The notes: generated from the sequence alone by a model not told the origin. A stretch of DNA of 64,000 nucleotides from Candidatus Falkowbacteria bacterium RIFOXYA2_FULL_47_19 (GCA_001780275.1 MFGB01000020.1:168813-232812), one strand, 5' to 3'; counted from the first letter of the stretch, positions 1,069 through 58,888 are shown. Numbers and translations are program-made.

Positions 1069-3735
1069 TTAAATCCATGTTACGCAAGCCACGCGATCCC
1101 CCTGATCCTTAAAACGCATCAAGCGCACGCCTTGTGTGTCCCGTCCCGATTCGTTGACCGTGGAGAAGGGTAGTCGGATCACCTGGCCTTTTTCCGAGAT
1201 GATCACTATGTCGCGTTCGTTCATATAATCCGTATTGACGACATAGGCGTTTACCAGCTTGCCGGTTTTAGTCGTTACTTTGGCGGTCTTAATACCGGAC
1301 CCGCCGCGACCCTGCAATTTATAGTGCTCTAAGGGGGTGCGCTTGCCGAATCCCTGCTCCATAATCGATAATATCTGGTATTTTTTCTCGAACTCTTTGT
1401 CGCTACGGATGACTCCCATGCCGACGACCGAATCGCCTCCCTTAAGCCTTATTCCGCGCACGCCGGTAGCGCCTCGTCCCATATCGCGGACATCCTTTTC
1501 TTTAAAGCGAACCGCCTGGCCTCCGGCCGTAATAAGCTGGATCTGGTCAGAGCCGCTGGTCGGTTTCGCCCAGATAAGCTTATCGTCATTTTTTATTTTT
1601 ATCGCGATCAACCCGGAACGGCGGACATTGGAGAAAGAGCTTAGGGCCACTTTCTTGACCAATCCTTTTTCCGTGGTAAAGAAAAGATAGGCGCTTTCGA
1701 TCAATTTATCGAGGGGCAGGGTCGAGGTTACTTTTTCTCCGCCGGCCAGCTGCAGAAAATTCACGATCGCTTGTCCCTTGGCCGTCCGCGTAGCTGCCGG
1801 TATTTCATAGGCTTTCAACTGGAAAGCCCGTCCGCGTGTCGTGAAAAAAAGAATATCGGAATGGGTCTGGGTTGTGAACATAAATTCGACCATATCCTCT
1901 TCTTTGGTCGTAAGGCCGATCACGCCCTTACCTCCCCGTCCCTGAACTTTAAAAGTGTCCGGGGTCATCCGTTTTATGTAGCCATCCCGGGTCATAAATA
2001 CCACAGCCTCTTCATTCGGCACCAGGTCTTCGACCGAGAAATCACTGACGCCATGGGGAACCACCAGCGTTCTTCTGTCATCGCCGTACTTTTCCCCTAG
2101 TTTAACGACCTCATCTTTGATTATATTCTTTATCTTGGTTTTGGATTTTAAGATTTCCTCAAGCTCTTTTATTATTCTTTTCTTTTCTTTCAGCTCTGTT
2201 TCTATCTTCAATCTTTCGAGATTGGCCAGCGTGGAGAGCTTCATGTCAAGGATCGCGATTACCTGCTTTTCCGACAATTTGAATTGCTTAATGAGATTTA
2301 TTTTGGCCGTTTCCCTGTCTTTGCTCGCTTTTATGGTTTTAATGACAGCATCGATCTTATTCAAGGCGATCATTAAGCCCTCGAGTATGTGGGCGCGTTC
2401 GCGGGCTTTATTAAGGTCGAATTGGGTCCGGCGGCGAACCACTACCTCCCGGTGCTTTATATATTCTTCGAGGGCCATTTTAAGTGTAAGCACTTTCGGC
2501 TGGAGTCCGTCCACTAAAGCCAGGATGTTCACGTGGAAAGTTTCCTGAAGCTGCGTATGTTTATATAAACCATTAAGGATCTTTTTCGGATAAGCGTCTT
2601 TTTTAAGCTCGATCACTATCCGGACGCCCTCTTTATCGGATTCGTCGCGCAGGTCTTTTATTCCTTCCAGCTTCTTGTTTTTGATTAGATCCGCGATTTT
2701 TTCAACCAGTACCGACTTGTTTACCTGGTAAGGTATTTCCGTGATCTCGATCCTGAATTTACCTCCCGCATCCTCGATTATGTCCGCCTTGCCCCGGACG
2801 ACGATTCCGCCTTTGCCGGTGGCGTAGGTTTGCATGATGTCCTTTTGGTTGTAAATTATGCCGCCGGTCGGAAAGTCGGGACCCTTGACGAACTGTGTCA
2901 GGTCTTCGGCGGTCGCGTCCGGATTGTCGATCAAATGGTTGATCGCGGCGGTAAGCTCGCGCAGGTTATGCGGCGGGATGTTCGTGGACATGCCCACGGC
3001 GATCCCAACCGTGCCGTTCAAGAGCAGATTCGGCAGCTTAGCCGGCATAACCAGCGGTTCTTTATGCGAGCCGTCGAAATTAGGCACAAAATCGACCGTG
3101 GCTTTTTCAATATCGAATAGCAAGTCTTCCGAAATGGGGGACATTTTCGCTTCCGTATAACGCATGGCCGCCGGCCGGTCCCCGTCCATTGAACCGAAGT
3201 TTCCCTGGCCGCGTACAAGCGGGTAGCGCAAGGCGAAATCCTGAGCCATGCGGGCCATTGAATCATAAACAGCCGTGTCGCCGTGCGGATGATATTTACC
3301 CAAGACTTCTCCGACCACCGTAGCTGATTTGCGGAATTTGCCGCCGGCCCTGAGGCCTATCGACCACATCGCGTAAAGTATCCGGCGATGTACCGGTTTT
3401 AAGCCGTCGCGCGCGTCAGGAAGAGCGCGGGAGACGATCACGCTCATTGCATAATCAAGATAAGACCGGCTCATTTCGGCGGAAATAGGCAAGGGTTCGA
3501 CGATTCCGTAGGGGGTCTGCTGCCTTTCTCCCACTATAAGATTTTTAGTTTCGGCCGAAGGGGTCGATTCGGATTTTTTTTGTTCTTCGTCTTCCGGCTC
3601 TTTCGCGTCGGCTTTTTTCAGCTCTTCTTCGTTAACGGGCTTAGCGTCTGTTTTTTTGTCAATTTTAATTTCAGGTTTTTTAGCGCTTTTTTTATCTTTA
3701 GCCGCCTTAGGGGCGGTTTTCTTGATTTTAGCCAT
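1069..3735 (-). CDS. gyrA: DNA gyrase subunit A with ~70-aa Lys/Glu-rich N-terminal extension
   Basis: [19 protein letters not shown] and [10 protein letters not shown] (catalytic Tyr) motifs; C-terminal beta-pinwheel repeats. The first ~70 aa are a K/E/A-rich low-complexity tract. Confidence 0.97.
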
Positions 3736-3772
3736 TTTATTTTAGTAATATTAATAATTAGAAACAGGATAA

Positions 3773-4399
3773 TTATTGTTGCATCTTTCCTTCCAATTCT
3801 TCCAGTCTGGTTTTTAATTTTTTAATTTCTTCTTCGGCGGCTTTTATGTTGATATCTGTGGTGGTGGCGTGTTCCGTGGTGGTAGCAGGCGCTTCTTCGT
3901 TCACGCGGTTAGGAATAACGGCGTCTTCTCCGCCGTCGGACGAATCGACCGTTTTAATGGTTTCAAGATCCGCTTTTAATTCATTCATTTTTTCCGCTAT
4001 TTCTTTGGCGGCCGTTTGCCATTCGGTTAAAATCGCGGCTTCAGCCCCATTGCCCTCGGAAGCTGTTTCTCGGAATACCCGGCTTGTGTTGCGGACCCAA
4101 AAGAAAGCGATAAGGATCATGAAAAAAATAACCCCGCTCCATAAAATAAGATTCTTGTCCTTTTCGATATTTTCAGACAGTATAATGCCCGGCTTAGGTT
4201 CTGTCGGTATATTTTTTGAACTAATCGCCTCTTTATTTATATCGCCTTCCGTTAAAAGCGAAGGTATTATTGGGGTTGTTTCAATTTTTTTTACCGGCGG
4301 CTTTTTAACTTTAATCTTCAGGGCGTGTTTGGTTTTTACCGGTTTTTTGGGGCCGGCTTGAATGGCTTTACGAGTGGTTTTTTTAGTTTTGGCGGGCAT
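3773..4399 (-). CDS. hypothetical single-pass membrane protein, Lys-rich N-terminus, C-terminal coiled coil
   Basis: Same strand as gyrA and 37 nt upstream of it. Histone-H1-like K/P-rich start, one TM (LILWSGVIFFMILIAFFWV), heptad-like C-terminus. The plus-strand ORF 3846..4361 is judged a shadow. Confidence 0.6.
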   Translation of the reverse strand: MPAKTKKTTRKAIQAGPKKPVKTKHALKIKVKKPPVKKIETTPIIPSLLTEGDINKEAISSKNIPTEPKPGIILSENIEKDKNLILWSGVIFFMILIAFFWVRNTSRVFRETASEGNGAEAAILTEWQTAAKEIAEKMNELKADLETIKTVDSSDGGEDAVIPNRVNEEAPATTTEHATTTDINIKAAEEEIKKLKTRLEELEGKMQQ

Positions 4400-4538
4400 A
4401 TTTAAAATTTTTATTACTAAAGAAAAATCACCCCCAAATAGTGTGAAATATGGTTTAATTGTACCAAAATAAAGGAAAAAAGTAAAGCCTAAAATACGCC
4501 AAAAAAATATTTGAAATAAGTTAAAAATAGGGCCTGAA

Positions 4539-4567
4539 TTGCCAAAAAAGCGAAAAAAAACTATAAT
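4539..4567 (+). promoter_or_regulatory. sigma70-like promoter TTGCCA-17-TATAAT
   Basis: -35 at 4539-4544, 17-nt spacer, consensus -10 at 4562-4567. Lies 37 nt upstream of a 27-codon ORF. Confidence 0.6.
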
Positions 4568-4603
4568 AGATAACAGGGATATGATTTAAAAATTAATATT
4601 TAT

Positions 4604-4687
4604 ATGGGACTGGTAAACTATTTTATCTTCGGCATAATTTTTGTCGCCGTCATTGTGGGAGTTTATGCCTACAACAAATTAAATTAA
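4604..4687 (+). CDS. candidate 27-aa hydrophobic micropeptide (MGLVNYFIFGIIFVAVIVGVYAYNKLN)
   Basis: ATG..TAA ORF below the track's size cut-off. It encodes one TM helix and sits between its own promoter and terminator. No clear SD. Confidence 0.35.
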   Translation: MGLVNYFIFGIIFVAVIVGVYAYNKLN

Positions 4688-4696
4688 GTGAAAAAA

Positions 4697-4730
4697 TAAA
4701 AAAGACGGAGAATTTTCCGTCTTTTTTTAT
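4697..4730. terminator. bidirectional intrinsic terminator
   Basis: AAAGACGGA-gaattt-TCCGTCTTT stem flanked by A-run and T-run. Sits between the micropeptide ORF and the convergent 4746..5390 gene. Confidence 0.8.
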
Positions 4731-4745
4731 TTCGTATTTTTGTTC

Positions 4746-5390
4746 TTACGGTTTTAGTATGACTAATTCCACGTCTTCCTGCGGCAATTCTTTTTTGGTT
4801 ATTTTTAGTTTATCTTCATAGGTCGGTTTAAGACCCATTTCCTTAATGAATTTATCGACGCCGTCCAGTTTTACTTTTAGCCCGGGCAGAGCGTAGTGCA
4901 TCGGTATGATTATTCTGGGCTCGATTTGACTGACTATTTCAACCGCTGTTTTCGCGTTTATCGTATAAGTTCCTCCTACGGGAATAAGCAATATATCGGT
5001 GCCCACCATAAGATCAAGCTGCTTGCTGTCAAGAATATGTCCCAGGTCGCCAAGGTGGGACACGGAAATGTCATCGACCTCTATGCGGAAGATTATGTTT
5101 TTTCCTCTTTCTTTCCCCCGTTTATCGTCATGGTCGGATTCGGCGCCGGCGATGGTTATGCCTTTTACGTCATACTCTCCGGCCTGATCGATGATAAAGG
5201 GGGTGCCGCGTAAGGCTTTTACGTTGTTATGATCGGTATGATCGTGACTTACCGTAACGATGTCCGATTCAAAACTTGGAACTTTAAGACCGATCGACTT
5301 ATCGAACGGATCGGTGGTGATCGTTATGCCGTCAGAGCCGACCTTGTTTTGGATTTTAAAACAGGAGTGGCCGAGCCAGGTTATGAACAT
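4746..5390 (-). CDS. metallo-beta-lactamase-fold hydrolase (UPF0173-like)
   Basis: MFITWLGHSCFKI N-terminus and SHDHTDH (HxHxDH-type) metal motif. Confidence 0.85.
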   Translation of the reverse strand: MFITWLGHSCFKIQNKVGSDGITITTDPFDKSIGLKVPSFESDIVTVSHDHTDHNNVKALRGTPFIIDQAGEYDVKGITIAGAESDHDDKRGKERGKNIIFRIEVDDISVSHLGDLGHILDSKQLDLMVGTDILLIPVGGTYTINAKTAVEIVSQIEPRIIIPMHYALPGLKVKLDGVDKFIKEMGLKPTYEDKLKITKKELPQEDVELVILKP

Positions 5391-5455
5391 ACGTTTTTTG
5401 TTACTAGTTAATTAGGTATTTTTATTTTCAGGCAAAAACCCCTTGTTGTCAATAG

Positions 5456-8140
5456 TCAGCGGGAAAATAATTTTTCAAAGTCATCGATTTTAGCGGCCGT
5501 TTTTTGGCGGTTATTTTTTTTCGCGTCCTTTTCGGCGGTCTGTTTATTCTCCCCGTCTTTTTTTTCTTCTTTTTCATCGTTTTCACCCTCTTCTTCATCA
5601 CTATCATCATCGCCGTTTTCTTCGTTTTCGTGCTCATTATTATTTTCTTCATCATCTTCTTCATCTTCTTTCGATTCCAGATCTTCTTCTTCGTTTTTGT
5701 CATTATTTTCCTCTTCCTCTTCCTTGAACACGACGTCATCGCGGCCTTCGTCATCTTCATCTTCGTTGTCGCCGTCTAAGTAGTTTTCCGGTACTTGCGC
5801 CTCCGCGCGGTTATGGAGGGCGACCCCGGAAACCCCCCGGCTTTCCATGGCGGCGTATTGTTCTTTGGTAATAAGGATCTCGCGCGGTTTGGCGCCGTTA
5901 ACCGGACCAACCACGCCGATTTTCTCCAGCTGGTCTAAAATACTGGCGGCACGGGCGTAACCGATGCGTAATTTGCGCTGCAGGAGAGAGGCTGAGGCTT
6001 TGCCCATGTTTATTATGATGTCCCTGGCCTCATGAAGCATGTCGTCATCGCCCTCGTTGCCGTCAAAACCAAAGCCGCCCGCGCCATGCGCGTTTTGCTT
6101 ATCGGTAATGCTGTCCACGTAGTTTGGCTGGCTGGCTTTTTTCTTTACATAGGCCACGATCTTTTTTATTTCATTATCGCTTACGTACGCCCCCTGCAAA
6201 CGGACCGGCTTGGATAATTCGGCGTTAAGGAAAAGCATGTCGCCGCGCCCCAGAAGTTTTTCGGCGCCGAGGGAATCGAGAATCGTCCGCGAATCTGTGC
6301 CGGAAGCCACTGAAAAAGCGACCCGGGCGGGCATATTGGCCTTGATAAGTCCGGTAATAACATCCACGCTCGGACGCTGGGTAGCCAGGACCAGATGGAT
6401 GCCTACTGCTCGGGCCATTTGCGCCAAACGGATCACGCCGGCCTCGATGTCGCGGGCGGCCGCGACCATAAGATCGGCTAACTCGTCGATGATAAAGATT
6501 ATATAAGGCATTTTAACGGCGGCGCTTTCGTTATAACCCTGGATATTCCTCTTGCCGTGTTTCGCGAGGATATCGAAGCGACGGTCCATTTCGTTTATGC
6601 ACCATTTAAGGGCGTTGATCGTTTTCGGCACTTCAGTGATAACCTCGGTCAATAAATAAGGGATCCCGTTGTACATCGGCAATTCGACGCGTTTAGGGTC
6701 GACCATGATGAATCGGAGGTTATCCGGATTATTCTGAAACATCAGGCTCACTATGATTGTATTCAGACACACCGATTTTCCGGAATTGGTCGCGCCCGCC
6801 ACAAGGAGATGCGGCATTTTCGTGATATCGTCCAGCCAGGAGCTTCCGGCGACGTCCTTGCCCAAAGCCAGCATTAAATTATTTTTTCTTTCTTTGTAAG
6901 CCTTAGCGGAGAGAACCTCTTTTAAGGAAACGATCGCTTTCGCCTGATTCGGGACCTCTACGCCGACTAAATGGCGGCCGGGGATCGGCGCCTCGATGCG
7001 GATGGGGTGCGCGGCCAGCGCGAGCGCCAGGTCGTTCGATAAATTCGTGATACGCGACAATTTGACCCCTTCTGCCGGACGGAATGTGTATTGCGTGACC
7101 GTTGGTCCGACGCTCACTTCGCCCATGTCCACGGTAATGCCGAAATTTTTTAAAGCTTTTTGGATGATGTCTTTGTTTTCATTAATATTGCCGCTGGTCG
7201 GTTTTTCTTTTTTATTATCAAGAAGACTTAGGGGTATGTTCATTTCTATATTAGTGGGCTTCCACCACACGTCATCAACCCCACTGTTTTTAAGGGGCGC
7301 GGCCTTAAAGGGGGTGGGTACCCCCTCCTCTTCTTCTTCATTTTCTTTTTCTTCTTCTTCTTCTTCTTCTTCTTCATTTTCTTCTTCCTCCTCCTCTTCT
7401 TCTTCATTTTCTTCTTCCTCTTCTTCTTCGCCCTCTTCCCCCTCCTCTTCTTCGCCCTCTTCTTCTTCTTCTTCTTCTTCGTCCTCTTCCTCTTCCTCCT
7501 TTTCTTCGCTCTCCTCTTTACCCCTTGATCCGAATAATTTTAATAATAAAAAGTTTAGCGGATAAAGCAGTTTAGCGATTAAACTTTCCCGGCCAAAAAG
7601 GCCCACCAGTGTCGTATTAAATAAAAGTAATAGGGAAATCACCAATAAGACGATAGACACTAAAAACGCGGCGATAAATCCCATAAGTTTCAATAATATT
7701 CCGGCTGGATAATAACCGACATAACCCCCGCCAAAGCCCTCCTTAAGACCGATCATCCATTGATCCGTCTCTACGAACAAAAAAAGCAAAGTATGAAAAG
7801 ACAGGACAAAAACAAACAGACCTAGATAATTTCCTCCTCGGATCTCGAATCTCTCTTCGTCATAAAGCATATATCCCCACCCCATAAGAATAACCGGAAT
7901 AAGCCATTTCCCCCAACCAAAAAGGGAGACTAGGCCGATTTTCAGGTATATCCCTAAAAGACCGGCTAAATCAAAAAGGCTTAAGGCTCCCAGGGCGCCT
8001 AAGGCCATGATCAATACGATGAAAATACCCTTTTTTGTATCCGGATCAAGCTCCAGCTCCGGCAGTCGGGGCAAGGAAATGTAATCCAGGATACTTCTTT
8101 TTCTGCGTCGCATAATTTTTACTACTAAAAAATAAGGCAA
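5456..8140 (-). CDS. ftsK: DNA translocase FtsK/SpoIIIE with poly-Glu linker and acidic C-terminal tail
   Basis: N-terminal TM helices; Walker A GATNSGKS; Walker B IIFIIDELADL; gamma winged-helix ASASLLQRKLRIGYARAASILDQLEKIGVVGP. Also has a ~65-aa E-rich linker and a ~130-aa D/E/N/K-rich tail after the gamma domain. Confidence 0.93.
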   Translation of the reverse strand: MPYFLVVKIMRRRKRSILDYISLPRLPELELDPDTKKGIFIVLIMALGALGALSLFDLAGLLGIYLKIGLVSLFGWGKWLIPVILMGWGYMLYDEERFEIRGGNYLGLFVFVLSFHTLLFLFVETDQWMIGLKEGFGGGYVGYYPAGILLKLMGFIAAFLVSIVLLVISLLLLFNTTLVGLFGRESLIAKLLYPLNFLLLKLFGSRGKEESEEKEEEEEDEEEEEEEEGEEEEGEEGEEEEEEENEEEEEEEEENEEEEEEEEEKENEEEEEGVPTPFKAAPLKNSGVDDVWWKPTNIEMNIPLSLLDNKKEKPTSGNINENKDIIQKALKNFGITVDMGEVSVGPTVTQYTFRPAEGVKLSRITNLSNDLALALAAHPIRIEAPIPGRHLVGVEVPNQAKAIVSLKEVLSAKAYKERKNNLMLALGKDVAGSSWLDDITKMPHLLVAGATNSGKSVCLNTIIVSLMFQNNPDNLRFIMVDPKRVELPMYNGIPYLLTEVITEVPKTINALKWCINEMDRRFDILAKHGKRNIQGYNESAAVKMPYIIFIIDELADLMVAAARDIEAGVIRLAQMARAVGIHLVLATQRPSVDVITGLIKANMPARVAFSVASGTDSRTILDSLGAEKLLGRGDMLFLNAELSKPVRLQGAYVSDNEIKKIVAYVKKKASQPNYVDSITDKQNAHGAGGFGFDGNEGDDDMLHEARDIIINMGKASASLLQRKLRIGYARAASILDQLEKIGVVGPVNGAKPREILITKEQYAAMESRGVSGVALHNRAEAQVPENYLDGDNEDEDDEGRDDVVFKEEEEENNDKNEEEDLESKEDEEDDEENNNEHENEENGDDDSDEEEGENDEKEEKKDGENKQTAEKDAKKNNRQKTAAKIDDFEKLFSR
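7325..7520 (-). repeat. GAA/GAG trinucleotide (poly-Glu codon) tract inside ftsK
   Basis: ~190 nt of near-uninterrupted ttc/ctc triplets on the plus strand. This generates the antisense poly-Ser shadow ORF 6996..7565. Confidence 0.9.
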
Positions 8141-12637: not shown

Positions 12638-15325
12638 TTATTCCTTCCTAAACTTTATAAGCAGTCCCGCCAGCACCGCGATCACCGCCCCCGCAATAAT
12701 AATGAGATAGCGGAAGAGCTCGAGTTTTTTGTCGCGGGCGGAGAGTTCCCATTCTTCGCCGGGAACGATCTCTCCGAGTACCTGCCCGATCTCTTCCGGC
12801 GCGGCTTCGTCCGGGGTTTCGATATCTTTTTTTACGATATCATCCGGAAAGCGCGGCATAATCCTTAAGCCGGTTTTGACGGCGTTTAAAATTCCGGTTA
12901 CGCTTGCCCGATCCCCCTCTTCGATCACCGCGGCTTCAACACCGCTTCCCTGGCTTAAAAATATTTTTATCTCGTCCGTGCCGTCGTCCAGAAAGAAGGA
13001 TGAACCTTTTTTCTCCACGATCTCGCCTGTGACCGCGATGAGGCTGCCCAAAAAGCTTTCATCGACCTCGGCGCAGGCGATGTTCTCGGCTTTCGGTTCT
13101 TCCCGGCGTTCCAGTATTTCCATGTCGGCCGCCTCTTTTGTCTTTAAACGTAATTCGCCGTTCGTAATCGCGAGCTCCGCCTGAACAGCGATATAGTCGC
13201 CGATCTTAAGGCGGGGAAAATCTTTCTTATAGTTATATACCTGGATACCGCCGCCATCCTCGCCGGTTATATAGAAATATTGCGTTCCCAAGACGCCCGG
13301 CAGAACCGCGACAGTCCCTAAAACGCGCAAAAGGTCCCCAGCTTCGAAATTTTTTGCCAATATCGGCGTGGTTTCAATGATGTTTTTATCCTCCGGCTCC
13401 GTTTTAACCGCTGTTCCGGCGGATATTCCGGCTAAAACCCCAGAAGCGGCCGAATCGGACAGGAGGATCACGTTCTTGCTTCCCGGCGTCGGCGCGGTGG
13501 TCCAGAACCATTTTCCGTTCTCTCCGCGGGCATAAGCTTCGCCGGAAACCGTTTTCCCGCATTTGACTTCGTCCGCCGTTTTGCCGGCGGGATCGAATAA
13601 ACGGACGAAATCACCGGAATTATTCAGGGACAAACCGCTTTCCGTCCGGCTGACCGACAAATAGGCGCCGTTCGCGATCCAGAAATCTTCTTTAAACGCG
13701 TGCGGCCGGCTGCCGCCTTCGCCGTCATCGAGCATCCAGTCAAGCAGGTTCACGCGGACGCCGCCGCGGTTATAAAGTTCGATGAACTCCGCTTCATCCC
13801 CGCCGTCCGGATCCGGCAAAAATTCGTTAATGATAATATCGGGTATTTCATCGGACCAGCCTTTCGTTTCGACCCCGGGAAAAACAGGGGTTTTTGTGGA
13901 GATTATTTTAATGACTTGTTCTTTTTTTGCCTCGTTGGCGCCGTCTTTGACCGTTAGCGCGATGTTAAAATCGCCACTAACGAAAAAAGTATGCTCGGCG
14001 ATCTTAAGGCCGCTCCTTGATCCGTCGCCGAAATCCCAGAAGAACTCCAACTCATCATTTTCAACATCAAGCGTGTCGCCGCCGTCGAATATTACCGGTT
14101 CGCCCGGATACGCTTCGGCTGGCGCGTCAAAATCGACTGCCGGCGCCTCGTTTACCGGCGAAAACCCGTTAACGCGGTCGGGGGTGACTTGCCTGGTCCA
14201 GGAATACTTCCCGTCCTCTTTCCGGCTCCAGCTTTCGCCCGGGGGCGAGGTTTTGTATGTTAATTTCTGGATAATGCGGTTATCCGCGTTTTTTAAAATT
14301 AAACTATCCCCGTTGTTATCCAGAGCTAGAGAGCTTTCTTCGCGACCGATCGCTCTATACCCGCCCGGCTCCAGGATAAGGCCGTCCATAAGGAATTCCC
14401 GGCCGGAATCATCGGACAATCTCCAGCCGGAAAGATCGAACGCGGTCGTGCCCGGATTATAAAGCTCGATGAATTCCCCAGCCGGACTGCCTAAGGGTGC
14501 GGCAAAGACCTCGGAAATAAAAGGTTGTTCTTGGGCTTCAGTCTTTTCGGGCGCGGCCGTTATAATATTTTCCTCTTCCCGTGTTATCGTACTGGTAAGA
14601 AGAAAAATTGCGCCGTCGCGCGCCAGGCTTTGGCCCGAGTCGGGCGCAGGGACGTTATCTTCCGTATGGCCATTATCCCAATCGCCGTAAACAACCTCAT
14701 CGATCAAATTGCCCGCCGGATCGATGAGTTGCAGGCGATCGCCGCCGTTATTTAAATTACCGGCGATATTTTCCTTAACAGACAGCTTCCGGGATCCGAT
14801 AACTCCCCCGAGTTCCGTTCTTCGTTCGCCGCCGTCTAGAAGAATCCAGCCGGAAAGATCAATATCCGCATCGGAAGCGTTAAATATTTCTACCCATTCC
14901 GCTTCGCCGTCTTCAGGTGCGGACACAAGCTCGTTTATAAGGATATCGCCCGCTTTGTATCCGTGCCGGACGGCGTTATCTTCGTCGGGGGCGATAACAT
15001 TCTCTTCTTCCGGAATTTTGTCAGACGTTTCCGAATCCGCCGCCAGGCAATTCACGCAGATCAAATCCTTAAAGCCGTCGAAAGTGGATTGTCCGATGCC
15101 GGGCACGTTCATGATATCCTCGATCGCGATAAAAGATCCCGTGCCCTGCCGATAATCGATTATTGAGAGCGCTTTAGCCGGGCCGATGCCGGGCAGAGAG
15201 TCTAATTCTTCCAAAGACGCCTTATTTATATCGATCGATCCGTCCGACATAGCCGACGGGCAATAAAAAAATCCTATCATGAATATAGACAGGAGTATTG
15301 TGATCATCGTTGTTTTCATAAGCAC
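12638..15325 (-). CDS. membrane-anchored surface protein: ComEA-type helix-hairpin-helix + 3 lamin-tail domains + PKD domain + OB-fold-like modules
   Basis: N-terminal signal/TM. HhH INKASLEELDSLPGIGPAKALSIIDYR. LTD signatures INELVS..EWVEIFN..IDLSGW, ISEVFA..EFIELYN..FDLSGW and IINEFLPDP..EFIELYN..NLLDW. PKD FFWDFGDGS. OB-like LRVLGTVAV...YFYI. C-terminal TM. ATG at 15319 is an alternative start. Confidence 0.8.
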   Translation of the reverse strand: MLMKTTMITILLSIFMIGFFYCPSAMSDGSIDINKASLEELDSLPGIGPAKALSIIDYRQGTGSFIAIEDIMNVPGIGQSTFDGFKDLICVNCLAADSETSDKIPEEENVIAPDEDNAVRHGYKAGDILINELVSAPEDGEAEWVEIFNASDADIDLSGWILLDGGERRTELGGVIGSRKLSVKENIAGNLNNGGDRLQLIDPAGNLIDEVVYGDWDNGHTEDNVPAPDSGQSLARDGAIFLLTSTITREEENIITAAPEKTEAQEQPFISEVFAAPLGSPAGEFIELYNPGTTAFDLSGWRLSDDSGREFLMDGLILEPGGYRAIGREESSLALDNNGDSLILKNADNRIIQKLTYKTSPPGESWSRKEDGKYSWTRQVTPDRVNGFSPVNEAPAVDFDAPAEAYPGEPVIFDGGDTLDVENDELEFFWDFGDGSRSGLKIAEHTFFVSGDFNIALTVKDGANEAKKEQVIKIISTKTPVFPGVETKGWSDEIPDIIINEFLPDPDGGDEAEFIELYNRGGVRVNLLDWMLDDGEGGSRPHAFKEDFWIANGAYLSVSRTESGLSLNNSGDFVRLFDPAGKTADEVKCGKTVSGEAYARGENGKWFWTTAPTPGSKNVILLSDSAASGVLAGISAGTAVKTEPEDKNIIETTPILAKNFEAGDLLRVLGTVAVLPGVLGTQYFYITGEDGGGIQVYNYKKDFPRLKIGDYIAVQAELAITNGELRLKTKEAADMEILERREEPKAENIACAEVDESFLGSLIAVTGEIVEKKGSSFFLDDGTDEIKIFLSQGSGVEAAVIEEGDRASVTGILNAVKTGLRIMPRFPDDIVKKDIETPDEAAPEEIGQVLGEIVPGEEWELSARDKKLELFRYLIIIAGAVIAVLAGLLIKFRKE

Positions 15326-15391
15326 GCTTTACTATGGTTCTTTGGACAAGGAGTTTAACGCGCGCGCCTTTATCGCTCGCCAAAAAAGGCA

Positions 15392-15465
15392 AACACGCAA
15401 CACTTGAAACGACGTACGCGGAAAACTAAATTCCCGCGCGCGGATCCGTTCCGGTGTTGCGTGTT
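15392..15465 (-). promoter_or_regulatory. structured leader / attenuator-like hairpin upstream of the LTD gene
   Basis: Perfect 12-bp closing helix (15454-15465 with 15392-15403) encloses an 8-bp inner hairpin. On the minus strand it is followed by UGCCUUUUUU. Lies 67-140 nt upstream of the start codon. Confidence 0.4.
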
Positions 15466-15640
15466 ATGCGCGCTTATTTTATTTTAGCACAAGGGTCATG
15501 AAGAAATCATAAAAAAAATATAAAATTTTCATAAAAAAAATATAAAGAAAAAATCAGTGGCATTATATTTCTATGGTAAATATATTTTTAGTATCTATTG
15601 GCTTATATTAAACATTTTATTAATTACATAGCCCACTACC

Positions 15641-21049: not shown

Positions 21050-21367
21050 TTACTGGTGCGTCGCGCCGTGCAAGGCGGTAAAGACGAACTGCGTGATTCC
21101 GTAAGCGGAGAGGACGATGATAAGGCCGGTGGTCGCGTTAGTGAGCACCTGTTTCGCTTTATATATCTTCGGTTCGTTTCCGGCCGAGGTCATCCAGAGA
21201 TAGCCGCCGTAAATAATAAGGCAGAGGAAAATAATTCCGAGAAGCGACAAAAAAACGCCGATGATGGCGCCGATGATCTCAGGGATGCTTTTCGGATCGG
21301 CAAAACCCGCGGCCTTAGCCGTGGCTTCAAGATATTCGAAAATCTTGTTTCTCAAGTCGAAGTCCAT
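21050..21367 (-). CDS. TrbC/VirB2-like mini-pilin family protein (paralog 1)
   Basis: Two TM helices flank YGGYLWMTSAGNEPKIYKAKQVLTNATTGLIIVLSAYGI. The same signature appears in 38239..38643. Confidence 0.6.
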   Translation of the reverse strand: MDFDLRNKIFEYLEATAKAAGFADPKSIPEIIGAIIGVFLSLLGIIFLCLIIYGGYLWMTSAGNEPKIYKAKQVLTNATTGLIIVLSAYGITQFVFTALHGATHQ

Positions 21368-21384: not shown

Positions 21385-24075
21385 CTACCTGGCGCCGAAT
21401 TTTTCTACCACTTTACCGGCATCCTCCAGTTTTATTGATAAGAGCTTAGAAACGCCGTCATCGCCCATCGTGATGCCGTAAAGGATATTGGCGCGGCGCA
21501 TGCTGGCGCGGTTGTGGGTTATGACGATGAACTGGGTTTTATGGGAGAGGTCGTCCAATATCCGGGCCAGGCGTTCCGAATTAGCTTCGTCCAGGGCCGC
21601 GTCCACTTCATCCAAGACCACGAAAGGCGAGGGGTTGGCGCTTATGATCGCGCAGATCAGGGCGATCGCGGTCAAGGCGCGTTCGCCGCCGGAAAGCATC
21701 GTTACCGTCTGGATCTTTTTTCCCGGGGGTGTCGCCTGGATCTCGATCCCGGCCAGGCCGGTCGCGTTGTGTTTCTGTAGGAATTTTATTTTCTTAAGGT
21801 CGGCCGCGGTTTTATCGGTAAAGGCGTCCTTATTATCTTTTTCCTTGCCTTCTTCCCCCTCGTTACCGGCCGCCGGCGCCTCATCCTTTTCCTCCTCTTC
21901 GATCACCTTGACTATCTTAGCCTGGCCGCCGTTAAAGAGGATCTTGAAATATTCCTGGAATTTTTCCGCGATCAGCTTGAATTCCTTGTCGAATTTTTCC
22001 TTGATCGTGATATCAAGCTCTTTGATTATCTTCTGGAGCGAATCGATGGCGCCGGTAAGATCGTTTACCTGCCCGGAAAGAAAATCATATCTTTCTTTGG
22101 TTTCTTTATATTCTTCCTCCACCTGCGGGTCGATCCCGCCGATCAACTCAAGCTGCCTTTTTAATTGCTTGATCTTTTCGTGAGCGGCTTCCAGTCCGAA
22201 AACCTCTCCCTCCGACAAAGATGATCGGAAATTCTTTATCTTTTCCATTCCGCCGAGCTCTTCCCGAATTTCTATTTCTAGGCTTTCCAGCCGCGTCTCA
22301 TAGCGGGTGGAATTTATCTTGTGTTCGTTTAATTGGTTGTTCATGAGATTGATCTCGTTCTGGAGTTCCTGCAGATTTTTTTGAAGAGAAAAAAGCCGTC
22401 GCCTTTTTTCCTCTTCCGCCGCGCTTAAGGCCGCGATCTTTTCTTTTATGATCCGGATCCTGTCTTCGACCGAAGCAAGCTCCTCCTCGAGGCCGGTTTT
22501 TTCATTTTCCGTTTCCCGGAAGTCGATATTGCCGGAAGCCTGTTTTATCTTATTCTCGATCGCCGCCGTTTCGCTTTCAAGTCCCCTGTTTTTTTCTTCG
22601 AGAAGCTTTACCCGCTCGGCGCGAGCCGAAACGCGCAGATTGTTTTCATTTATTCTTTTAAGTATCTCTTCTTTCTTTTGGGCCAGCACGTTTAAGGATT
22701 CGTGGATCTCCGCGAAATGTTTCTCTTTCTTTTCGCCGTTTTTTTCGGAGTTAGCGCCATCGAGGATGGCGCTGATCTCATTTTTTATTTCGGCTATCAG
22801 TTTTTTTACGGCATCAAGGTCTGTTTCCGCTTCTATCCGTCCGATCTTTTCTAGGATGCCGCGCAGCCGGTCGTCGCCCCGGAATCTTCCGGTGCTCTCC
22901 GCGCTTTTCCCGACCTCGGCCATCAGGGCGTTAAGACGGTCTATCTCGCGGTCTATCCCGGCTTTTTCCGCAGTAAGTTCCGTGCCGCGGGCGCTGTCGG
23001 GGGACATGGCGTTTTTCAGGGAAACGATCTCTTTCCCGATCGCGCCGATCTCGTTTTTAAGTTCGCCTTTTTTAGAAACAAGGAAAGAAAGATCGAATTG
23101 TCCGCCGGCCTCAAGTTTCATTTCCATCTGCGCATCCAGGCGCGCCAGTTTTCTGTTTATCCCTTCTTTGGCAAGCTGTTCCCGGTTAAGGTCGCTTTCG
23201 AGAGCGGAATATTCGCTTCCGGTTCCGCCCTCCTCTTTCATTTTCTCCAGGTCGTGGTTAAGGCCGGAGAGTTTTTTTTCTTTACCCAGCTTAATCTTCT
23301 CAAGTTCCAGGAAGCGGTTATTATAATCGGAAAACTTATCGTTTATGTCGTGCCAGACCCGGCCGTAGTATTCGATCTGGAGCGCCCGCAACTCGGTTTC
23401 GGCCTCGCCCCGTTTTTGCAGGCGGCTTACCTGCCGCGTCAGGCTTTTAAGACGCGGTTCGATCTCGGTAATGAGCATTCCTGCCTGGGTCAGGTTCTCG
23501 TAGCTGCCCCGGAGTTTATTCAAGGACTCGTCTCTTTTTATCTGGTATTGCCTGACACCAGTGGCCTCGTCGAAGAACTCCTTGCGTTCGGCTAAAGTAG
23601 TATTCAGGAAGCCTTCGACCATGCCCTGCCCGATCACGCTGTAGGTCTTCTGTCCGAAGCTGGCCTTGGCCAGAAGCATCTGGATATCGGAAAGGCGTAC
23701 GCGGTTGTTGTTGATCATGTATTCGGAGTCGCCGTTCCGGTAAAGCCGGCGAGTCAAAACGACTTCCGAAAAATCGATCGGCGCCTTGCGGTCCTCGTTA
23801 TTTAGAAAAAGTGATACCTCCGCCATGCCGAGCTTACCCTTCTTGTCCGATCCGGAAAAGATAATGTCCTCGGATTTTTTACCCCTGAGGGTTTTCATGC
23901 TTTGTTCGCCCAAAGCCCAGCGGACCGCATCGGCCACGTTCGATTTTCCCGATCCGTTCGGTCCGACCACGGCGGTTATCCCGCGCCGGCTCTGGTCGAG
24001 CATGCCGGGAAACAAAAGAACGTTCTTGTTGGCGAACGATTTAAAGCCTAAAATTTCCAATTTTTCCAAATACAT
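21385..24075 (-). CDS. smc: SMC-family chromosome partition ATPase, short form with no recognisable hinge
   Basis: N-terminal LEILGFKSF...GPNGSGKSNVADAVRWALGEQS. C-terminal LSGGERALTAIALICAI and VLDEVDAALD. Continuous heptad-like sequence between the heads. ATG at 24075 (MYLEKLEILGFKSF) preferred as start. Confidence 0.88.
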   Translation of the reverse strand: MYLEKLEILGFKSFANKNVLLFPGMLDQSRRGITAVVGPNGSGKSNVADAVRWALGEQSMKTLRGKKSEDIIFSGSDKKGKLGMAEVSLFLNNEDRKAPIDFSEVVLTRRLYRNGDSEYMINNNRVRLSDIQMLLAKASFGQKTYSVIGQGMVEGFLNTTLAERKEFFDEATGVRQYQIKRDESLNKLRGSYENLTQAGMLITEIEPRLKSLTRQVSRLQKRGEAETELRALQIEYYGRVWHDINDKFSDYNNRFLELEKIKLGKEKKLSGLNHDLEKMKEEGGTGSEYSALESDLNREQLAKEGINRKLARLDAQMEMKLEAGGQFDLSFLVSKKGELKNEIGAIGKEIVSLKNAMSPDSARGTELTAEKAGIDREIDRLNALMAEVGKSAESTGRFRGDDRLRGILEKIGRIEAETDLDAVKKLIAEIKNEISAILDGANSEKNGEKKEKHFAEIHESLNVLAQKKEEILKRINENNLRVSARAERVKLLEEKNRGLESETAAIENKIKQASGNIDFRETENEKTGLEEELASVEDRIRIIKEKIAALSAAEEEKRRRLFSLQKNLQELQNEINLMNNQLNEHKINSTRYETRLESLEIEIREELGGMEKIKNFRSSLSEGEVFGLEAAHEKIKQLKRQLELIGGIDPQVEEEYKETKERYDFLSGQVNDLTGAIDSLQKIIKELDITIKEKFDKEFKLIAEKFQEYFKILFNGGQAKIVKVIEEEEKDEAPAAGNEGEEGKEKDNKDAFTDKTAADLKKIKFLQKHNATGLAGIEIQATPPGKKIQTVTMLSGGERALTAIALICAIISANPSPFVVLDEVDAALDEANSERLARILDDLSHKTQFIVITHNRASMRRANILYGITMGDDGVSKLLSIKLEDAGKVVEKFGAR

Positions 24076-24140
24076 ATAAATCAAACGAAAACAGGTTTAT
24101 CCGACCCGTTATATTATATTATACTATAATTCGGGAAAAT

Positions 24141-35023: not shown

Positions 35024-36544
35024 ATGAGCTCGAAAGTATTATCGGCGGCAGTTATCGGCCTTGAAGCCGAAATCGTCGAGGTCGAAGCCGACCGTGGCGG
35101 CGGCGAGCACGGCATTTTTTCTATCGTCGGACTGCCCGACGCGGCCGTAAGCGAATCGCGCGAACGGGTCCGGAGCGCGATCAAGAATTCCCACTCCCGC
35201 CTCAACAGCAATAAAATAACCGTCAACCTGGCTCCCGCCGATCTAAAAAAACACGGTCCGAGCTATGACCTGCCCATCGCCATCTCCGTCCTGATCGCCA
35301 CCGGGAAGCTTCACGTAAAAGACGATCACTCCGCCATGCTTTTTGTCGGCGAGCTGGCCCTAAACGGGGATCTTAGGCCGGTTAACGGCATCCTGCCGGT
35401 CGCGCTTAGGGCGGCGAAGAGCGGTATAAAGACCCTTTTCGTTCCGGCCGCCAACGCCCGGGAAGCGAAGCTGGTGGGAGACATAGAAGTGATGCCGGTA
35501 AACGACCTTAATCAGGTCGTGCGCCACCTTGAAGGGGAAAAAGCGATAGAGCCGATGCCCGGAAGCGACTTTGATTTCGTCAATAGCGAAATTATTTTCG
35601 ATATGTCCCACATACGCGGCCAAGAACACGTTAAGCGCGCCATGGAAATAGCGGCGGCCGGGGCGCATAACATGATGATGAGCGGCCCTCCGGGGTCCGG
35701 CAAAACCCTGATCGCCCGCACTATGCCAGGGATTCTTCCTAATTTAACTTTGCCGGAAGCCCTGGAAATCACCAAGATCTATTCGGTGGCCGGTTATCTG
35801 CCCGCCGGAGCGTCCCTGGTCACTAGCCGGCCTTTCCGCTCGCCGCACCACACCGCCTCGGGTGTGGCTTTGGTCGGAGGCGGCGCCTGGCCCCGGCCCG
35901 GAGAGATTTCCCTGGCGCATCGCGGCGTTCTTTTTCTCGACGAATTTTCCGAATTTCCGCGGCCGGTTTTAGAAAACCTGCGCCAGCCGCTTGAAGACGG
36001 CGTGATCCACGTCAGCCGGGCGGCCGGCAATCTTAGTTTTCCGGCGAAATTCATCCTGGTGTCCGCCATGAACCCCTGCCCTTGCGGTTATCTCGGCGAC
36101 CGGGAAAAGAATTGCGTTTGCTCGCCTATGCAGGTAATGAACTATAAAAAAAAGATCTCCGGACCGATCATCGACCGGATCGACATCCACATCGAGGTTC
36201 CCCGGGTAAAGTTCGACAAATTAGCGGCGGCAAGCAGCGGCGAAAGATCGGAGGGCATAAAAAAGAGGGTCGAAGCCGCCAGACGGATCCAGGAATCGCG
36301 ATTCAAGGGCACGTCTTTTATCGCCAACTCGGAAATGACCTCCGAGGCTGTCAAAAATTTTTGCCCTTTGGACGATATCTCGAAAACGCTTTTAAAAAAC
36401 GCGGTTGAATCCATGCACCTGTCGGCCCGGGCCTATTTCCGGATATTAAAACTCGCCCGCACGATCGCTGATCTTTCTATAAGTGAAAAAGTCCATTCAG
36501 AGCATGTGGCTGAAGCTTTGCAGTACAGGCCGAAGGAGATCTAG
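35024..36544 (+). CDS. comM: Mg-chelatase-like AAA+ protein ComM/YifB
   Basis: N-terminal Lon-protease-like region (GLPD.AV.ESRERV), Walker A GPPGSGKT, LFLDEF, C-terminal ChlI-associated region. Confidence 0.92.
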   Translation: MSSKVLSAAVIGLEAEIVEVEADRGGGEHGIFSIVGLPDAAVSESRERVRSAIKNSHSRLNSNKITVNLAPADLKKHGPSYDLPIAISVLIATGKLHVKDDHSAMLFVGELALNGDLRPVNGILPVALRAAKSGIKTLFVPAANAREAKLVGDIEVMPVNDLNQVVRHLEGEKAIEPMPGSDFDFVNSEIIFDMSHIRGQEHVKRAMEIAAAGAHNMMMSGPPGSGKTLIARTMPGILPNLTLPEALEITKIYSVAGYLPAGASLVTSRPFRSPHHTASGVALVGGGAWPRPGEISLAHRGVLFLDEFSEFPRPVLENLRQPLEDGVIHVSRAAGNLSFPAKFILVSAMNPCPCGYLGDREKNCVCSPMQVMNYKKKISGPIIDRIDIHIEVPRVKFDKLAAASSGERSEGIKKRVEAARRIQESRFKGTSFIANSEMTSEAVKNFCPLDDISKTLLKNAVESMHLSARAYFRILKLARTIADLSISEKVHSEHVAEALQYRPKEI

Positions 36545-39357: not shown

Positions 39358-39449
39358 ATTATAAATGATATAATACATACAGGGAGGCAAGCCTCTTTTT
39401 AATTTTGTTAATTCATATAATTTTATTAATTCATTTTCATCATAAATTT

Positions 39450-40493
39450 ATGTCAGACAACAAAGAAAAAATCAAAAATGAAAAGAAAAGCGCGGACGAT
39501 AAGATCCTGGCAGCGGAAGAGGCCATGGCGCAAATAAAAAGCAAATTCGGGGATGGCGCCATCATGAAATTCGGCGAGGCCAGGCGTTCGAATGTCGATG
39601 CCGTTTCCACCGGCTGTCTTTCCCTTGATATCGCGCTCGGGATCGGCGGCGTGCCCCGCGGTCGGATTATCGAGATCTTCGGCCCCGAAGCCTCCGGCAA
39701 AACAACTTTGGCCCAGCACATAGTGTCCGAAGTGCAAAAGCTTGGCGGGATCGCCGCTTTCGTCGACGCCGAACACGCTCTTGATCCCGATTACGCGGGC
39801 CGAATCGGCGTAAACGTCAAGGATCTCCTTATTTCCCAGCCCGATACCGGCGAGCAGGCCCTCGAGATCGTGGAGACATTGGTGCGTTCCAACGCTGTGG
39901 ACGTGATCGTCATCGATTCGGTGGCCGCTTTGGTGCCGCAAAAAGAGATCGACGGGGACATGGGCGATCAGCACATGGGCCTCCAGGCGCGCCTCATGAG
40001 CCAGGCCCTAAGAAAGCTTACAGGCGTCGTTTCAAAAACCAAGACCGTCGTAATATTCATAAACCAGATCAGGCTTAAAATCGGCGTTTTCTTCGGTAAC
40101 CCGGAAACCACGACCGGCGGCACCGCCCTTAAATTTTATTCTTCCGTCCGGATAGAGGTAAGAAGGAGCGCGCAGATCAAGCAGGGAGATAAGATCATCG
40201 GCAATCGCGTTAAGACGAAGATCGTCAAGAACAAAGTGGCGGCGCCTTTCCGCACTTGCGAATTCGACATAATGTACAACGAAGGGATCTCCGTTTCGGG
40301 CGATCTTCTTGATACCGGAGTAACTTACGGCGTCATCAATAAGTCGGGCAATTCTTACGCCTATGGGGAGATTAAGCTTGGCACCGGCCGGGAAAACGCC
40401 AAAAGATTCCTGCGCGCCGACAAAAAACTGATGAAAGATATCCGTAAATCGATCTTAAATGAAGTCAAAGCCAGAGAAACAGAGGAGAATTAA
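39450..40493 (+). CDS. recA: recombinase RecA
   Basis: [11 protein letters not shown] Walker [21 protein letters not shown]1/L2 loop regions. ATG at 39450 preferred as start. Confidence 0.98.
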
Positions 40494-41448: not shown

Positions 41449-41940
41449 TTAAAAAGGTATGTTTTCGACCTTGATCTCGTCGTCGGCCTGGCCGTAATCG
41501 GCCGGTTCGTTGACGTCGATTACCGGCTCGGATTTTTCCGACGGCAGCGGCGGCGCTTCGGCGGACCGGAAATTGCCGGTGTTACCGGCGCGATCCAGCA
41601 TGATCATGTTGTCGGCGATGATCTCCGTCCGATAACGCTTTACGCCGTCCTGACCGACCCAGTCCCTGGTCTGCAGGCGCCCCTCGACATAGATCTTGGA
41701 GCCTTTGCGGAGATATTGTCCGCAAATTTCGGCTAATTTCCTCCAAGCTACGATATTATGGAATTCGGCTCTTTCCTGTTTTTGCCCGCTCTGATCTTTC
41801 CATACGAAGTTCGTGGCCACTGAAAACGAAGCGACGGCCGTACCGTTAGGGGTATTCCTGACCTCTGGATCCCGGGTCAGATTGCCGATAATCATGGCTT
41901 TATTTAGATTCATAATTTTTCTTTTTACCGCGTTCGCCAT
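41449..41940 (-). CDS. ssb: single-stranded DNA-binding protein
   Basis: [21 protein letters not shown]-fold start and acidic C-terminal tip [11 protein letters not shown]. Confidence 0.93.
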
Positions 41941-50283: not shown

Positions 50284-50481
50284 TCAGCCTCCGGCTATGG
50301 ACATAAGTTTTATAACGGCTCCGTCGGGTATTATGTGATTTTCGAAATCTTTCCTGGCTATTCCCCGGCCGTTCACGTAAATAAGTCCGACCGGAGCTAT
50401 GATCTTCAAATCCGTGAGCATTTGCTTCAGGCTTAAATCCGGCCGCCAGGGATAGTTCGCGCCTTCAACCGTGATCATCAT
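50284..50481 (-). CDS. ThiS/MoaD-like beta-grasp protein ending in Gly-Gly (paralog 1)
   Basis: 65 aa. Has the VNG....D..L.DGD/A-type pattern and a C-terminal ...SIAGG. Overlaps the aor stop by 17 nt. Confidence 0.55.
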   Translation of the reverse strand: MMITVEGANYPWRPDLSLKQMLTDLKIIAPVGLIYVNGRGIARKDFENHIIPDGAVIKLMSIAGG

Positions 50482-56536: not shown

Positions 56537-56590
56537 AATTTGATCCATAATTTTTTGCATCAAAGCTCTTTTAAAATCCAGGATCGACGG

Positions 56591-56611
56591 ACGACACCGG
56601 GTCGTTTTTTT
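56591..56611 (+). terminator. intrinsic terminator
   Basis: ACGAC-accgg-GTCGT followed by T7. Lies inside the track's 5' extension of the prs ORF. Confidence 0.65.
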
Positions 56612-56644
56612 ATATTTAAAACAAAAAATACGAGGAGGTGCAAA

Positions 56645-57721: not shown

Positions 57722-57734
57722 AAAATACAAACAA

Positions 57735-57761
57735 AAAGCGCCTTAAATAAAGGGCGCTTTT
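57735..57761 (+). terminator. intrinsic terminator
   Basis: AAAGCGCC-N10-GGCGCTTT stem followed by T. Confidence 0.7.
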
Positions 57762-57787
57762 AAATTACGCGCGTTGTCCCTCGCGTC

Positions 57788-57816
57788 TTGACAAAAAAGA
57801 AAAAATACGCCATAAT
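57788..57816 (+). promoter_or_regulatory. promoter TTGACA-17-CATAAT
   Basis: Consensus -35 with 17-nt spacer, ~70 nt upstream of the first HD gene. Confidence 0.65.
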
Positions 57817-57887
57817 TAAACATTGAATATAAATATTTTTTAAATTCAAAAAAAACAAATCAAAGCACCGAACAACAAGGAGGATCG

Positions 57888-58847: not shown

Positions 58848-58888
58848 AACCGGAAAAATAAAGCTTACCTAAAATCAGGAGGCAAAAA

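Follow-up and report, generated by a model that had tools for sequence, protein, structure and literature searches.

Members of the Candidate Phyla Radiation (CPR, Patescibacteria) are unable to synthesise nucleotides themselves and presumably subsist on DNA that they scavenge. ComEC is reported from most metagenome-assembled genomes (MAGs) of Patescibacteria and ComEA only from some, which leaves room for a non-canonical receptor that catches DNA at the surface; type IV pili are mentioned in this group for host adhesion (PMC13293708). The N-terminal OB fold of ComEC (DUF4131, PF13567) is located at the external side of the membrane; it has a high affinity for DNA and is the proposed recipient of DNA passed on by ComEA, and ComEC variants devoid of the OB fold exist (PMC12455585). 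The surface exonucleases ExeM and Xds, of Shewanella and Vibrio, show a lamin-tail domain (LTD), an OB fold and an EEP domain (NF033680), of which LTD and OB constitute a DNA-handling front end and the OB is required for DNA degradation in Xds (PMC6746945). The DNA-degradation loci of Candidatus Izemoplasma (Izemoplasmatales) encode a protein of 1,049 aa that unites LTD, nuclease and nucleic-acid-binding domains and was interpreted as acting on extracellular DNA (PMC8289736). Here, a gene of Candidatus Falkowbacteria bacterium RIFOXYA2_FULL_47_19 is compared with these systems. It is located at 12638..15325 on the minus strand of a stretch of 64,000 nucleotides (GCA_001780275.1, MFGB01000020.1:168813-232812), hereafter the window, and encodes a predicted surface protein with a ComEA-type helix-hairpin-helix (HhH) head, three LTDs, a PKD domain, two OB folds and a C-terminal transmembrane (TM) helix.

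The open reading frame (ORF) runs from a GTG at 15325 to the stop codon at 12638-12640 and encodes 895 aa, in exact agreement with an earlier note on this DNA, which was made from the sequence alone. An ATG at 15319, two codons downstream of the GTG, is the start used in the public annotation and gives a protein of 893 aa, whose numbering is used here throughout. This 893-aa protein is 100% identical to the hypothetical protein A2303_07290 of Candidatus Falkowbacteria bacterium RIFOXYB2_FULL_47_14, the gene of which is carried on a 179-kb contig. In public records its relatives go by the names "hypothetical" or "lamin tail domain-containing" and now and then by a wrong label, for instance "alpha amylase". 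In the literature, no paper was found that joins LTDs to a function in Patescibacteria or to ComEA/ComEC, and no description was found of the LTD-LTD-PKD-LTD-OB-OB-TM family or of the HhH fusion architecture. Neither the fusion nor the family has been described, but each component is familiar, as is the concept of a membrane-tethered DNA receptor.

The head of the protein is a ComEA-type double HhH (GIGPAKALSIIDYR; second hairpin PGIGQSTF) at residues 29-90 (15050..15235; this and all other parts of the gene are on the minus strand). It matches Pfam HHH_3 with an E-value of 2.6e-15 (56.7 bits, cutoff 27) and HHH with 3.1e-10, and it exceeds the curated cutoff of NCBIfam TIGR00426, which describes the ComEA HhH region (59.6 bits, cutoff 53.1). 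In the PDB, a 60-residue alignment with the DNA-binding domains of ComEA (8dfk and 8dss) shows about 50% identity, and there are further matches to the Thermus ComEA-related protein 2duy and to the tandem HhH of human EEPD1. The AlphaFold2 model of this domain has a confidence score (pLDDT) of 95-97. The ComEA-type HhH read by the earlier note is thus borne out by curated models and by identity to known structures.

Likeness to ComEA includes this double HhH and, as predicted for the window protein, export, tethering to the membrane and the lack of enzymatic activity. ComEA is small (the 8dfk and 8dss chains have about 150 residues) and its HhH is C-terminal, whereas the HhH of the window protein is N-terminal in an 893-aa chain that is anchored at the C-terminus and continues after the HhH with three LTDs, a PKD domain and a tandem OB. 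The full-length ComEA model TIGR01259 fails (67.9 bits against 152.35), with a match to its last 65 positions alone. Furthermore, no comE operon context is found at the 22 loci compared: the window, seven loci from an exact protein look-up and 14 full-length relatives from a scan of a genome collection. In Gram-positive bacteria, ComEA has an N-terminal anchor and an oligomerisation domain. Judged by sequence, the window protein resembles ComEA at its tip but is not a ComEA.

A DNA-related role is the best-supported reading of the protein, given its ComEA-type HhH, the fold class of its OB pair and the staphylococcal nuclease (SNase) fusions found in relatives. More precisely, it may be a non-enzymatic extracellular DNA-binding receptor on the cytoplasmic membrane of a cell-wall-bearing CPR bacterium, a reading that, on sequence and structure models, we regard as evenly balanced between right and wrong. 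If it is right, the protein is a concrete candidate for the missing DNA receptor of CPR bacteria, the members of Falkowbacteria type, which carry a ComEA head on a conserved core, would be the first functional handle on a large uncharacterised family, and a function would be assigned to bacterial LTDs. The earlier note had described an extracellular DNA capture device of an organism dependent on scavenged nucleotides; the architecture and the extracellular topology agree with the first part, and the link to competence or nucleotide scavenging is one that we infer.

The second module with a predicted affinity for nucleic acids is the tandem OB. OB fold 1 is located at residues 648-740 (13100..13378) and OB fold 2 at residues 741-835 (12815..13099). 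A separate AlphaFold model of residues 644-842 (pLDDT 95.2, pTM 0.89) shows two five-stranded barrels packed together as a rigid pair, which confirms the two OB-like barrels of the earlier note. In Foldseek, this pair matches with probability 1.00 POT1, Teb1, HIN-200 proteins (p202, p204, AIM2 and MNDA), RPA and SSB, and also the anticodon-binding OB domains of LysRS and AsnRS. By these best fold matches, the modelled pair belongs to a nucleic-acid-binding fold class. OB fold 2 reaches 26.2 bits with the Pfam tRNA_anti-codon model (PF01336 class; cutoff 27), which passes in 41 of 55 relatives, with E-values down to 3.6e-20. Nine residues of OB fold 1, aromatic, polar or basic, are invariant in the family (Q680, F682, Y683, Q693, Y695, F701, P702, R724 and K726), and OB fold 2 shows an invariant acidic LDDG..E motif (D778, D779, E783) together with P822, R823 and D827. 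Relatives of the OB-OB-TM module also show weak matches, below the cutoff, to DUF4131, the OB fold of ComEC (E 6e-06 to 2e-04). Like this ComEC domain, the tandem OB is predicted to lie at the cytoplasmic membrane on its external side. However, the window protein is not a channel, its OB is tandem and not single, and acidic and not basic, and the similarity stays below the Pfam threshold.

Between the head and the OB pair, the protein shows an acidic disordered linker and a stalk of four domains. The linker, residues 91-120 (14960..15049), has a net charge of -7, is poorly conserved and has a pLDDT below 50 at residues 94-117. LTD1 is located at residues 121-248 (14576..14959; pLDDT about 90-96) and shows the family-invariant motifs INE..P..E.E(W)(I/V)E..N and LNN.GD. 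LTD2 is located at residues 265-380 (14180..14527) and contains the best Pfam LTD stretch (263-358 in the 895-aa numbering). The PKD domain (FFWDFGDGS) follows at residues 381-474 (13898..14179) and LTD3 at residues 492-615 (13475..13846); LTD2 and LTD3 are each found by Pfam and by AlphaFold2. Pfam LTD (PF00932) matches in three stretches with an E-value of 4.3e-50 (169.1 bits, cutoff 34.3), and the PKD domain matches PKD_4 at 1.9e-15 (57.1 bits, cutoff 27) and PKD at 3.6e-06 (PF18911/PF00801). In a sequence search of the PDB, the family profile matches the PKD domains of the collagenases ColG and ColH (down to 1.3e-18) and, weakly, the lamin-B2 tail 2lll over LTD3 (E 0.0037); these are its only matches, and the OB pair is unmatched. 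The fold of the PKD domain agrees with ColG/ColH PKD in Foldseek (TM 0.85-0.89, root-mean-square deviation 1.3-1.5 A). The HhH, the three LTDs and the PKD domain listed in the earlier note are all above the Pfam cutoffs and well beyond chance.

The full-chain AlphaFold2 model, built with 65 homologues, has a mean pLDDT of 85.9 and a pTM of 0.38, with the folded domains above 90. Since five disordered linkers (94-117, 256-262, 477-489, 629-645 and 840-862) separate the confident domains and the pTM is low, the protein has no fixed overall shape. No EEP or SNase match is found in Pfam at E<=1, and all folded segments in Pfam and AlphaFold2 belong to assigned domains, which leaves no room for a hidden enzyme.

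The absence of an enzyme separates the protein from its closest multidomain counterparts. ExeM and Xds are exported proteins with LTD and OB like the window protein, and their model NF033680 gives a faint match over LTD1 (17 bits, cutoff 1300). Unlike them, the window protein shows neither the EEP domain nor the GlyGly-CTERM signal, and it has three LTDs, a PKD domain, a tandem and not a single OB, a plain TM anchor and an HhH head. Two relatives with the order LTD-SNase-LTD-OB-OB-TM (P0199 and P0230) share with it a homologous tandem OB, LTDs and the C-terminal TM anchor. A tie to the YhcR-type OB-fold nucleases exists only through the YhcR OB COG label that JGI gives to some relatives. In contrast to these nucleases, the window protein lacks both SNase and 5'-nucleotidase domains and shows an HhH in their place, so it is predicted to bind but not to cut. 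The Izemoplasma protein is likewise large and exported, belongs to a wall-less or monoderm bacterium with a reduced genome, and combines LTD with nucleic-acid-binding modules, but it has a nuclease domain and a nuclease/transporter locus, neither of which is found for the window protein.

These comparisons raise a nutritional alternative, in which the protein would hold and concentrate DNA for a separate secreted nuclease, the resulting nucleotides or nucleosides being dephosphorylated and imported with no part for ComEC. The built-in nuclease of some members (LTD-SNase-LTD-OB), the front end of LTD and OB shared with Xds and ExeM, the LTD/nuclease protein in the DNA-degradation loci of Izemoplasmatales (PMC8289736) and the salvage-type genes of the window (56.5-59.8 kb: PRPP synthetase and two YfbR-like HD 5'-deoxynucleotidases) speak for it. 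On the other hand, nuclease or transporter neighbours are absent in the 22 loci and the HhH is of the competence (ComEA) type. This alternative, which we consider unlikely, differs from the receptor reading in the downstream partner alone, and the present data do not separate the two.

A surface receptor has to be exported, and the hydropathy profile shows two hydrophobic segments only, in the first 25 and the last 30 residues. The N-terminal segment, residues 1-25 (15245..15319), consists of MKTT, MITILLSIFMIGFFY and CPSAMS|DG, that is, one Lys, about 15 hydrophobic residues and then the putative cleavage site SAMS|DG. AlphaFold2 shows a hydrophobic helix at residues 2-19 and a low-confidence stretch at 18-25, and the hydrophobic region ends in a GFF(Y/C) motif that the family conserves. 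Of 113 relatives, 103 combine a positive n-region and an h-region with a site that obeys the (-3,-1) rule and immediately precedes the first domain; AGA|QG, GLA|DD and VLA|DE are examples. The N-terminal segment is thus probably a cleavable Sec signal peptide. Because it resembles a cleaved signal peptide, the protein is probably anchored at the C-terminus alone, with the HhH at the far tip, and the double anchoring assumed in the earlier note is doubtful. Type IV prepilin-like processing of an N-terminal "(K/Q)GG...GFF" was considered and rejected: the GG is missing in the window protein and there is no Glu at +5, and the AxA-type sites ahead of the first domain also count against it.

The C-terminal end (12641..12754) shows a juxtamembrane motif, EWELSARDKKLELFRY (residues 856-871), a TM helix, LIIIAGAVIAVLAGLLI (872-888), and a basic tail, KFRKE (889-893); in the AlphaFold2 model a helix spans 864-892. 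The C-terminal TM helix of the earlier note is confirmed by hydropathy. With a basic tail behind this helix, the positive-inside rule assigns most of the protein to the exterior of the cell and not to the cytoplasm. PKD and bacterial LTDs are modules of exported proteins. A C-terminal TM with a basic tail is present in 116 of 120 relatives: 75 show the RDKKxELFKY-type motif (EW.(L/I)A.RDKKLELF(K/R)YLLIIAGG, with the core EW..A.RDKKLELFKYLLIIAGG) and 19 a second tail type, EKYLTATAGG (AEKYLTATAGGLT). With a conservation of 0.74, the juxtamembrane and TM segment is on a par with the best folded domains. When the C-terminal tails were scanned with NCBIfam at E<=10, none of the known sorting signals (LPXTG, GlyGly-CTERM, PEP-CTERM, PGF-CTERM) was matched; the sole match, below the threshold, concerns the TM portion of the LPXTG anchor model, in tails that have no LPXTG motif. 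The family tail motif was also sought on unrelated proteins and found on none in the small sample of 514 ORFs of the related loci. The segment could mark a site where a membrane partner makes contact, or a processing signal not described so far.

The family is large and concentrated in CPR bacteria. Among the candidates scored, more than 760 relatives are found at E<=1e-5; those with a name belong almost all to Patescibacteria, Falkowbacteria, Parcubacteria or Magasanikbacteria, and the genome-collection scan adds Uhrbacteria, Peribacteria and Saccharibacteria, as well as three bins labelled Gammaproteobacteria or Bdellovibrionales. The relative from Saccharibacteria, L021, shows 26% identity. 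The OB-OB-TM query (residues 644-893) finds 2,237 proteins at E<=0.001, 346 of them at E<=1e-30, in a database of 1.84 billion representatives of 50%-identity clusters. Of 55 representatives, 54 show LTD, 49 PKD, 41 the OB model, six HHH_3 and one SNase. Hence, of the architecture whose conservation in relatives the earlier note had asked about, the core LTD-LTD-PKD-LTD-OB-OB-TM is conserved and widespread in Patescibacteria, and the HhH is not: it is an accessory tip module. Members without HhH show at the N-terminus an extra LTD, DUF4215, or other Ig-like or Cys-rich modules. In a neighbour-joining tree of the core region, which carries no support values, members with and without HhH are interleaved, which suggests either repeated swaps of the tip module or an old paralogy of the two forms. 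Conservation in the family peaks at LTD1, the tandem OB and the juxtamembrane/TM segment.

Four proteins of 1,300-1,500 aa (P0122, P0124, P0142 and P0176) show three to six copies of the tandem OB, with LTD matches in three of the four. They do not look patescibacterial and end in sortase-like motifs of the MPRTGGG, VPETGGGG or LPTTG type in place of the TM tail of CPR type. The tandem-OB module is therefore not limited to CPR.

The family distribution bears on two further readings. In the broader one, the LTD-PKD-LTD-OB-OB-TM family would be the main extracellular DNA receptor of Patescibacteria in replacement of the canonical ComEA, which is missing from many of their genomes, with the tandem OB, fixed by the conserved juxtamembrane/TM segment, docking on ComEC and feeding it, and with HhH or LTD tips as alternative heads; bacterial LTDs would then be DNA-binding modules themselves. 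We consider this extension doubtful. In the other, the protein would be a surface adhesin or structural fibril, with an Ig-like stalk that attaches to host, cells or biofilm matrix and no hand-over of DNA; in this subfamily the HhH tip would only stick to matrix DNA, and the OB pair would bind polysaccharide of the wall or the host. CPR bacteria are mostly episymbionts obliged to attach to hosts, which fits an adhesin, as do the apparently repeated swaps of the tip (HhH, extra LTD, DUF4215, other Ig-like modules), common in adhesins that face diversifying pressure, the acidic surface and the absence of linkage to DNA-uptake genes. Whole-model Foldseek matches are to S-layer, biofilm-associated, Ig-like adhesin and cell-adhesion receptor proteins, and would favour the same reading, but they are generic Ig/PKD multidomain matches and uninformative. 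However, the best-conserved parts are the tandem OB and the juxtamembrane segment and not the tip, the opposite of what is expected of an adhesin, the OB fold class and the SNase fusion in relatives point to nucleic acid, and the HhH is by its sequence a bona fide ComEA-type DNA-binding domain. An adhesin, which would make this an ordinary multidomain surface protein, is in our judgement rather unlikely.

If the protein is a DNA receptor, it could work as follows. Sec would export it and the N-terminal signal peptide would be cut off, so that the C-terminal TM helix alone would hold the mature chain, with the five-residue basic tail inside according to the positive-inside rule. From the membrane outward, the chain would form a string of beads: tandem OB, LTD, PKD, LTD, LTD, acidic linker and HhH tip. 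Seven folded domains of about 3-4 nm each and about 85 disordered linker residues would add up to a few tens of nm, a length that should suffice to cross the wall and any S-layer. By its identity of about 50% to ComEA, the HhH head would bind double-stranded DNA without sequence preference. The flexible stalk would let the head search outside the wall and bring bound DNA to the tandem OB, the invariant aromatic and basic residues of which, in view of their conservation and fold class, may form a second nucleic-acid site. The conserved juxtamembrane/TM segment would fix the position of the tandem OB and may touch a membrane partner. For uptake, the DNA might then pass to ComEC, and for nutrition to surface nucleases and nucleoside transport; the protein may serve either route or both, and no genomic linkage was found for them. 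In most of the family, the core LTD-LTD-PKD-LTD-OB-OB-TM would work without the HhH, which would be one of several interchangeable tips.

Several points weigh against the receptor reading. The ectodomain has an isoelectric point of 4.3 and every domain is net negative, including OB fold 1 (-3) and OB fold 2 (-9), which argues against strong electrostatic DNA binding along the stalk. Since the canonical ComEA HhH, as counted from the 8dfk/8dss alignment, is slightly acidic too, this acidity is not counted against the HhH itself. OB folds may also bind sugars or proteins, and the Foldseek TM-scores are modest: 0.35-0.42 for the OB pair and about 0.63 for single OBs. The HhH is present in a minority, about 10-25% of the members (six of 55 representatives, about 30 of the 120 best matches), and because most members are without it, a conserved function of the family cannot rest on the HhH. 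DNA binding is not among the properties shown for bacterial LTDs, and the LTD of Xds is dispensable for nuclease activity and localisation (PMC6746945). The predicted cleavage of the signal peptide is based on a crude home-made rule and not on SignalP. Finally, no comEC, comF, type IV pilus, nuclease or nucleoside-transporter gene is found within about 8-10 kb of the gene at the 22 loci.

The gene appears to be monocistronic, with a divergent PadR-PspC pair on one side and a convergent gene for a small membrane protein on the other. As the earlier note had remarked, no comEC is adjacent to it, and none is found among the window ORFs scanned. The other genes named there are in place: comM at 35024-36544, recA at 39405-40493 and a recQ-type helicase from about 62.2 kb, of which the N-terminal 566 residues (about 62200-64000) are contained in the window before it runs past the end. 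An ssb gene is located at 41449-41940. These four genes lie 20-50 kb from the gene under study, comM and recA at 20-25 kb. In two other loci (L009 and L018), ComM is encoded about 4-5 kb from the LTD gene.

Neighbourhoods were clustered by an all-against-all BLAST of 514 neighbouring ORFs; the genome-collection scan was dominated by the PKD peptide pattern, and about 14 of its 80 loci are true relatives. The sole recurrent neighbours are FtsK (seven of the 22 loci), a 214-aa protein with metallo-beta-lactamase (MBL) fold, a 208-aa protein, GyrA and SMC, and they recur in one clade only, in the order (SMC) ... LTD protein ... FtsK - MBL-fold protein - 208-aa protein - GyrA. In the window this block is located at 1069-8140 and 21385-24084, and it is also found in L004, L005, L008, L010, L013 and L020. 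FtsK is downstream on the same strand in L004, L005, L008, L013 and L020, with gaps of 129-730 bp in three of them (129 bp in L020), whereas in the window and in L010, where FtsK is likewise close by and on the same strand, opposite-strand genes (four in the window) separate it from the LTD gene. At these loci FtsK is 51-93% identical to the window FtsK, and the synteny is absent from the other 15. Since it is confined to one clade defined by FtsK relatedness, we read the synteny as inherited gene order and not as a sign of function.

This gene order is the ground for one more alternative, in which the protein would act alongside FtsK, SMC and gyrase when the chromosome is segregated or the cell divides. 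The position upstream of a same-strand FtsK in five loci, at distances down to 129 bp, and the genes for the MBL-fold protein, GyrA and SMC near several of them would agree with such a role. It is nevertheless highly improbable, given the four opposite-strand genes that part the two in the window and the restriction of the synteny to one clade; moreover, contact with the chromosome would be impossible, since the protein is predicted to be almost wholly extracellular with a cytoplasmic tail of five residues. The gene neighbourhood was rejected as functional evidence for the same two reasons, the extracellular location of the protein and a synteny that tracks FtsK relatedness. The 214-aa MBL-fold neighbour was also examined as a detached nuclease domain of ComEC and rejected: it lacks a Competence domain and, since its MBL fold begins at residue 1, it has no signal peptide and looks cytoplasmic.

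The AT-rich intergenic region between the start of the gene and the PadR gene contains a long GC-rich hairpin at 15360-15474 (minus strand), just downstream of an extended -10-like sequence, TGTGCTAAAAT. Its arms consist of a perfect 12-bp outer stem (AACACGCAACAC / GTGTTGCGTGTT) and an inner stem (CGCGCGGGAA...TTCCGCG), and the RNA fold has an energy of -64 kcal/mol (z = -3.46 against shuffles). A search across the window found neither a tRNA nor an Rfam family, and the hairpin itself matches no family in Rfam. The stretch is nearly identical in L010, where the LTD protein is 81% identical to that of the window, and may regulate the gene as an element of its 5' leader.

A small gene of the T4SS_pilin type (PF18895), at about 21050-21367 on the minus strand (3953-4270 in L001), adjoins SMC at a distance of a few kb from the LTD gene. 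Small genes like it are located within 5-10 kb of the LTD gene in L006 (16255-16716), L010 (1-66) and L020 (an ORF). T4SS_pilin genes are perhaps common in such genomes, and their proximity to the LTD gene may be due to chance.

Further away in the window, a gene encoding a phosphoribosyl pyrophosphate (PRPP) synthetase is followed by two adjacent genes of the YfbR-like HD 5'-deoxynucleotidase type (56540-59767), a salvage cluster which fits an organism living on scavenged nucleotides. Finally, a gene encoding a full-length aldehyde:ferredoxin oxidoreductase (AFOR_N and AFOR_C, 8.9e-83) at 50465-52771 on the minus strand adjoins a gene encoding a class-III aminotransferase; the oxidoreductase is somewhat unexpected for a reduced CPR genome.

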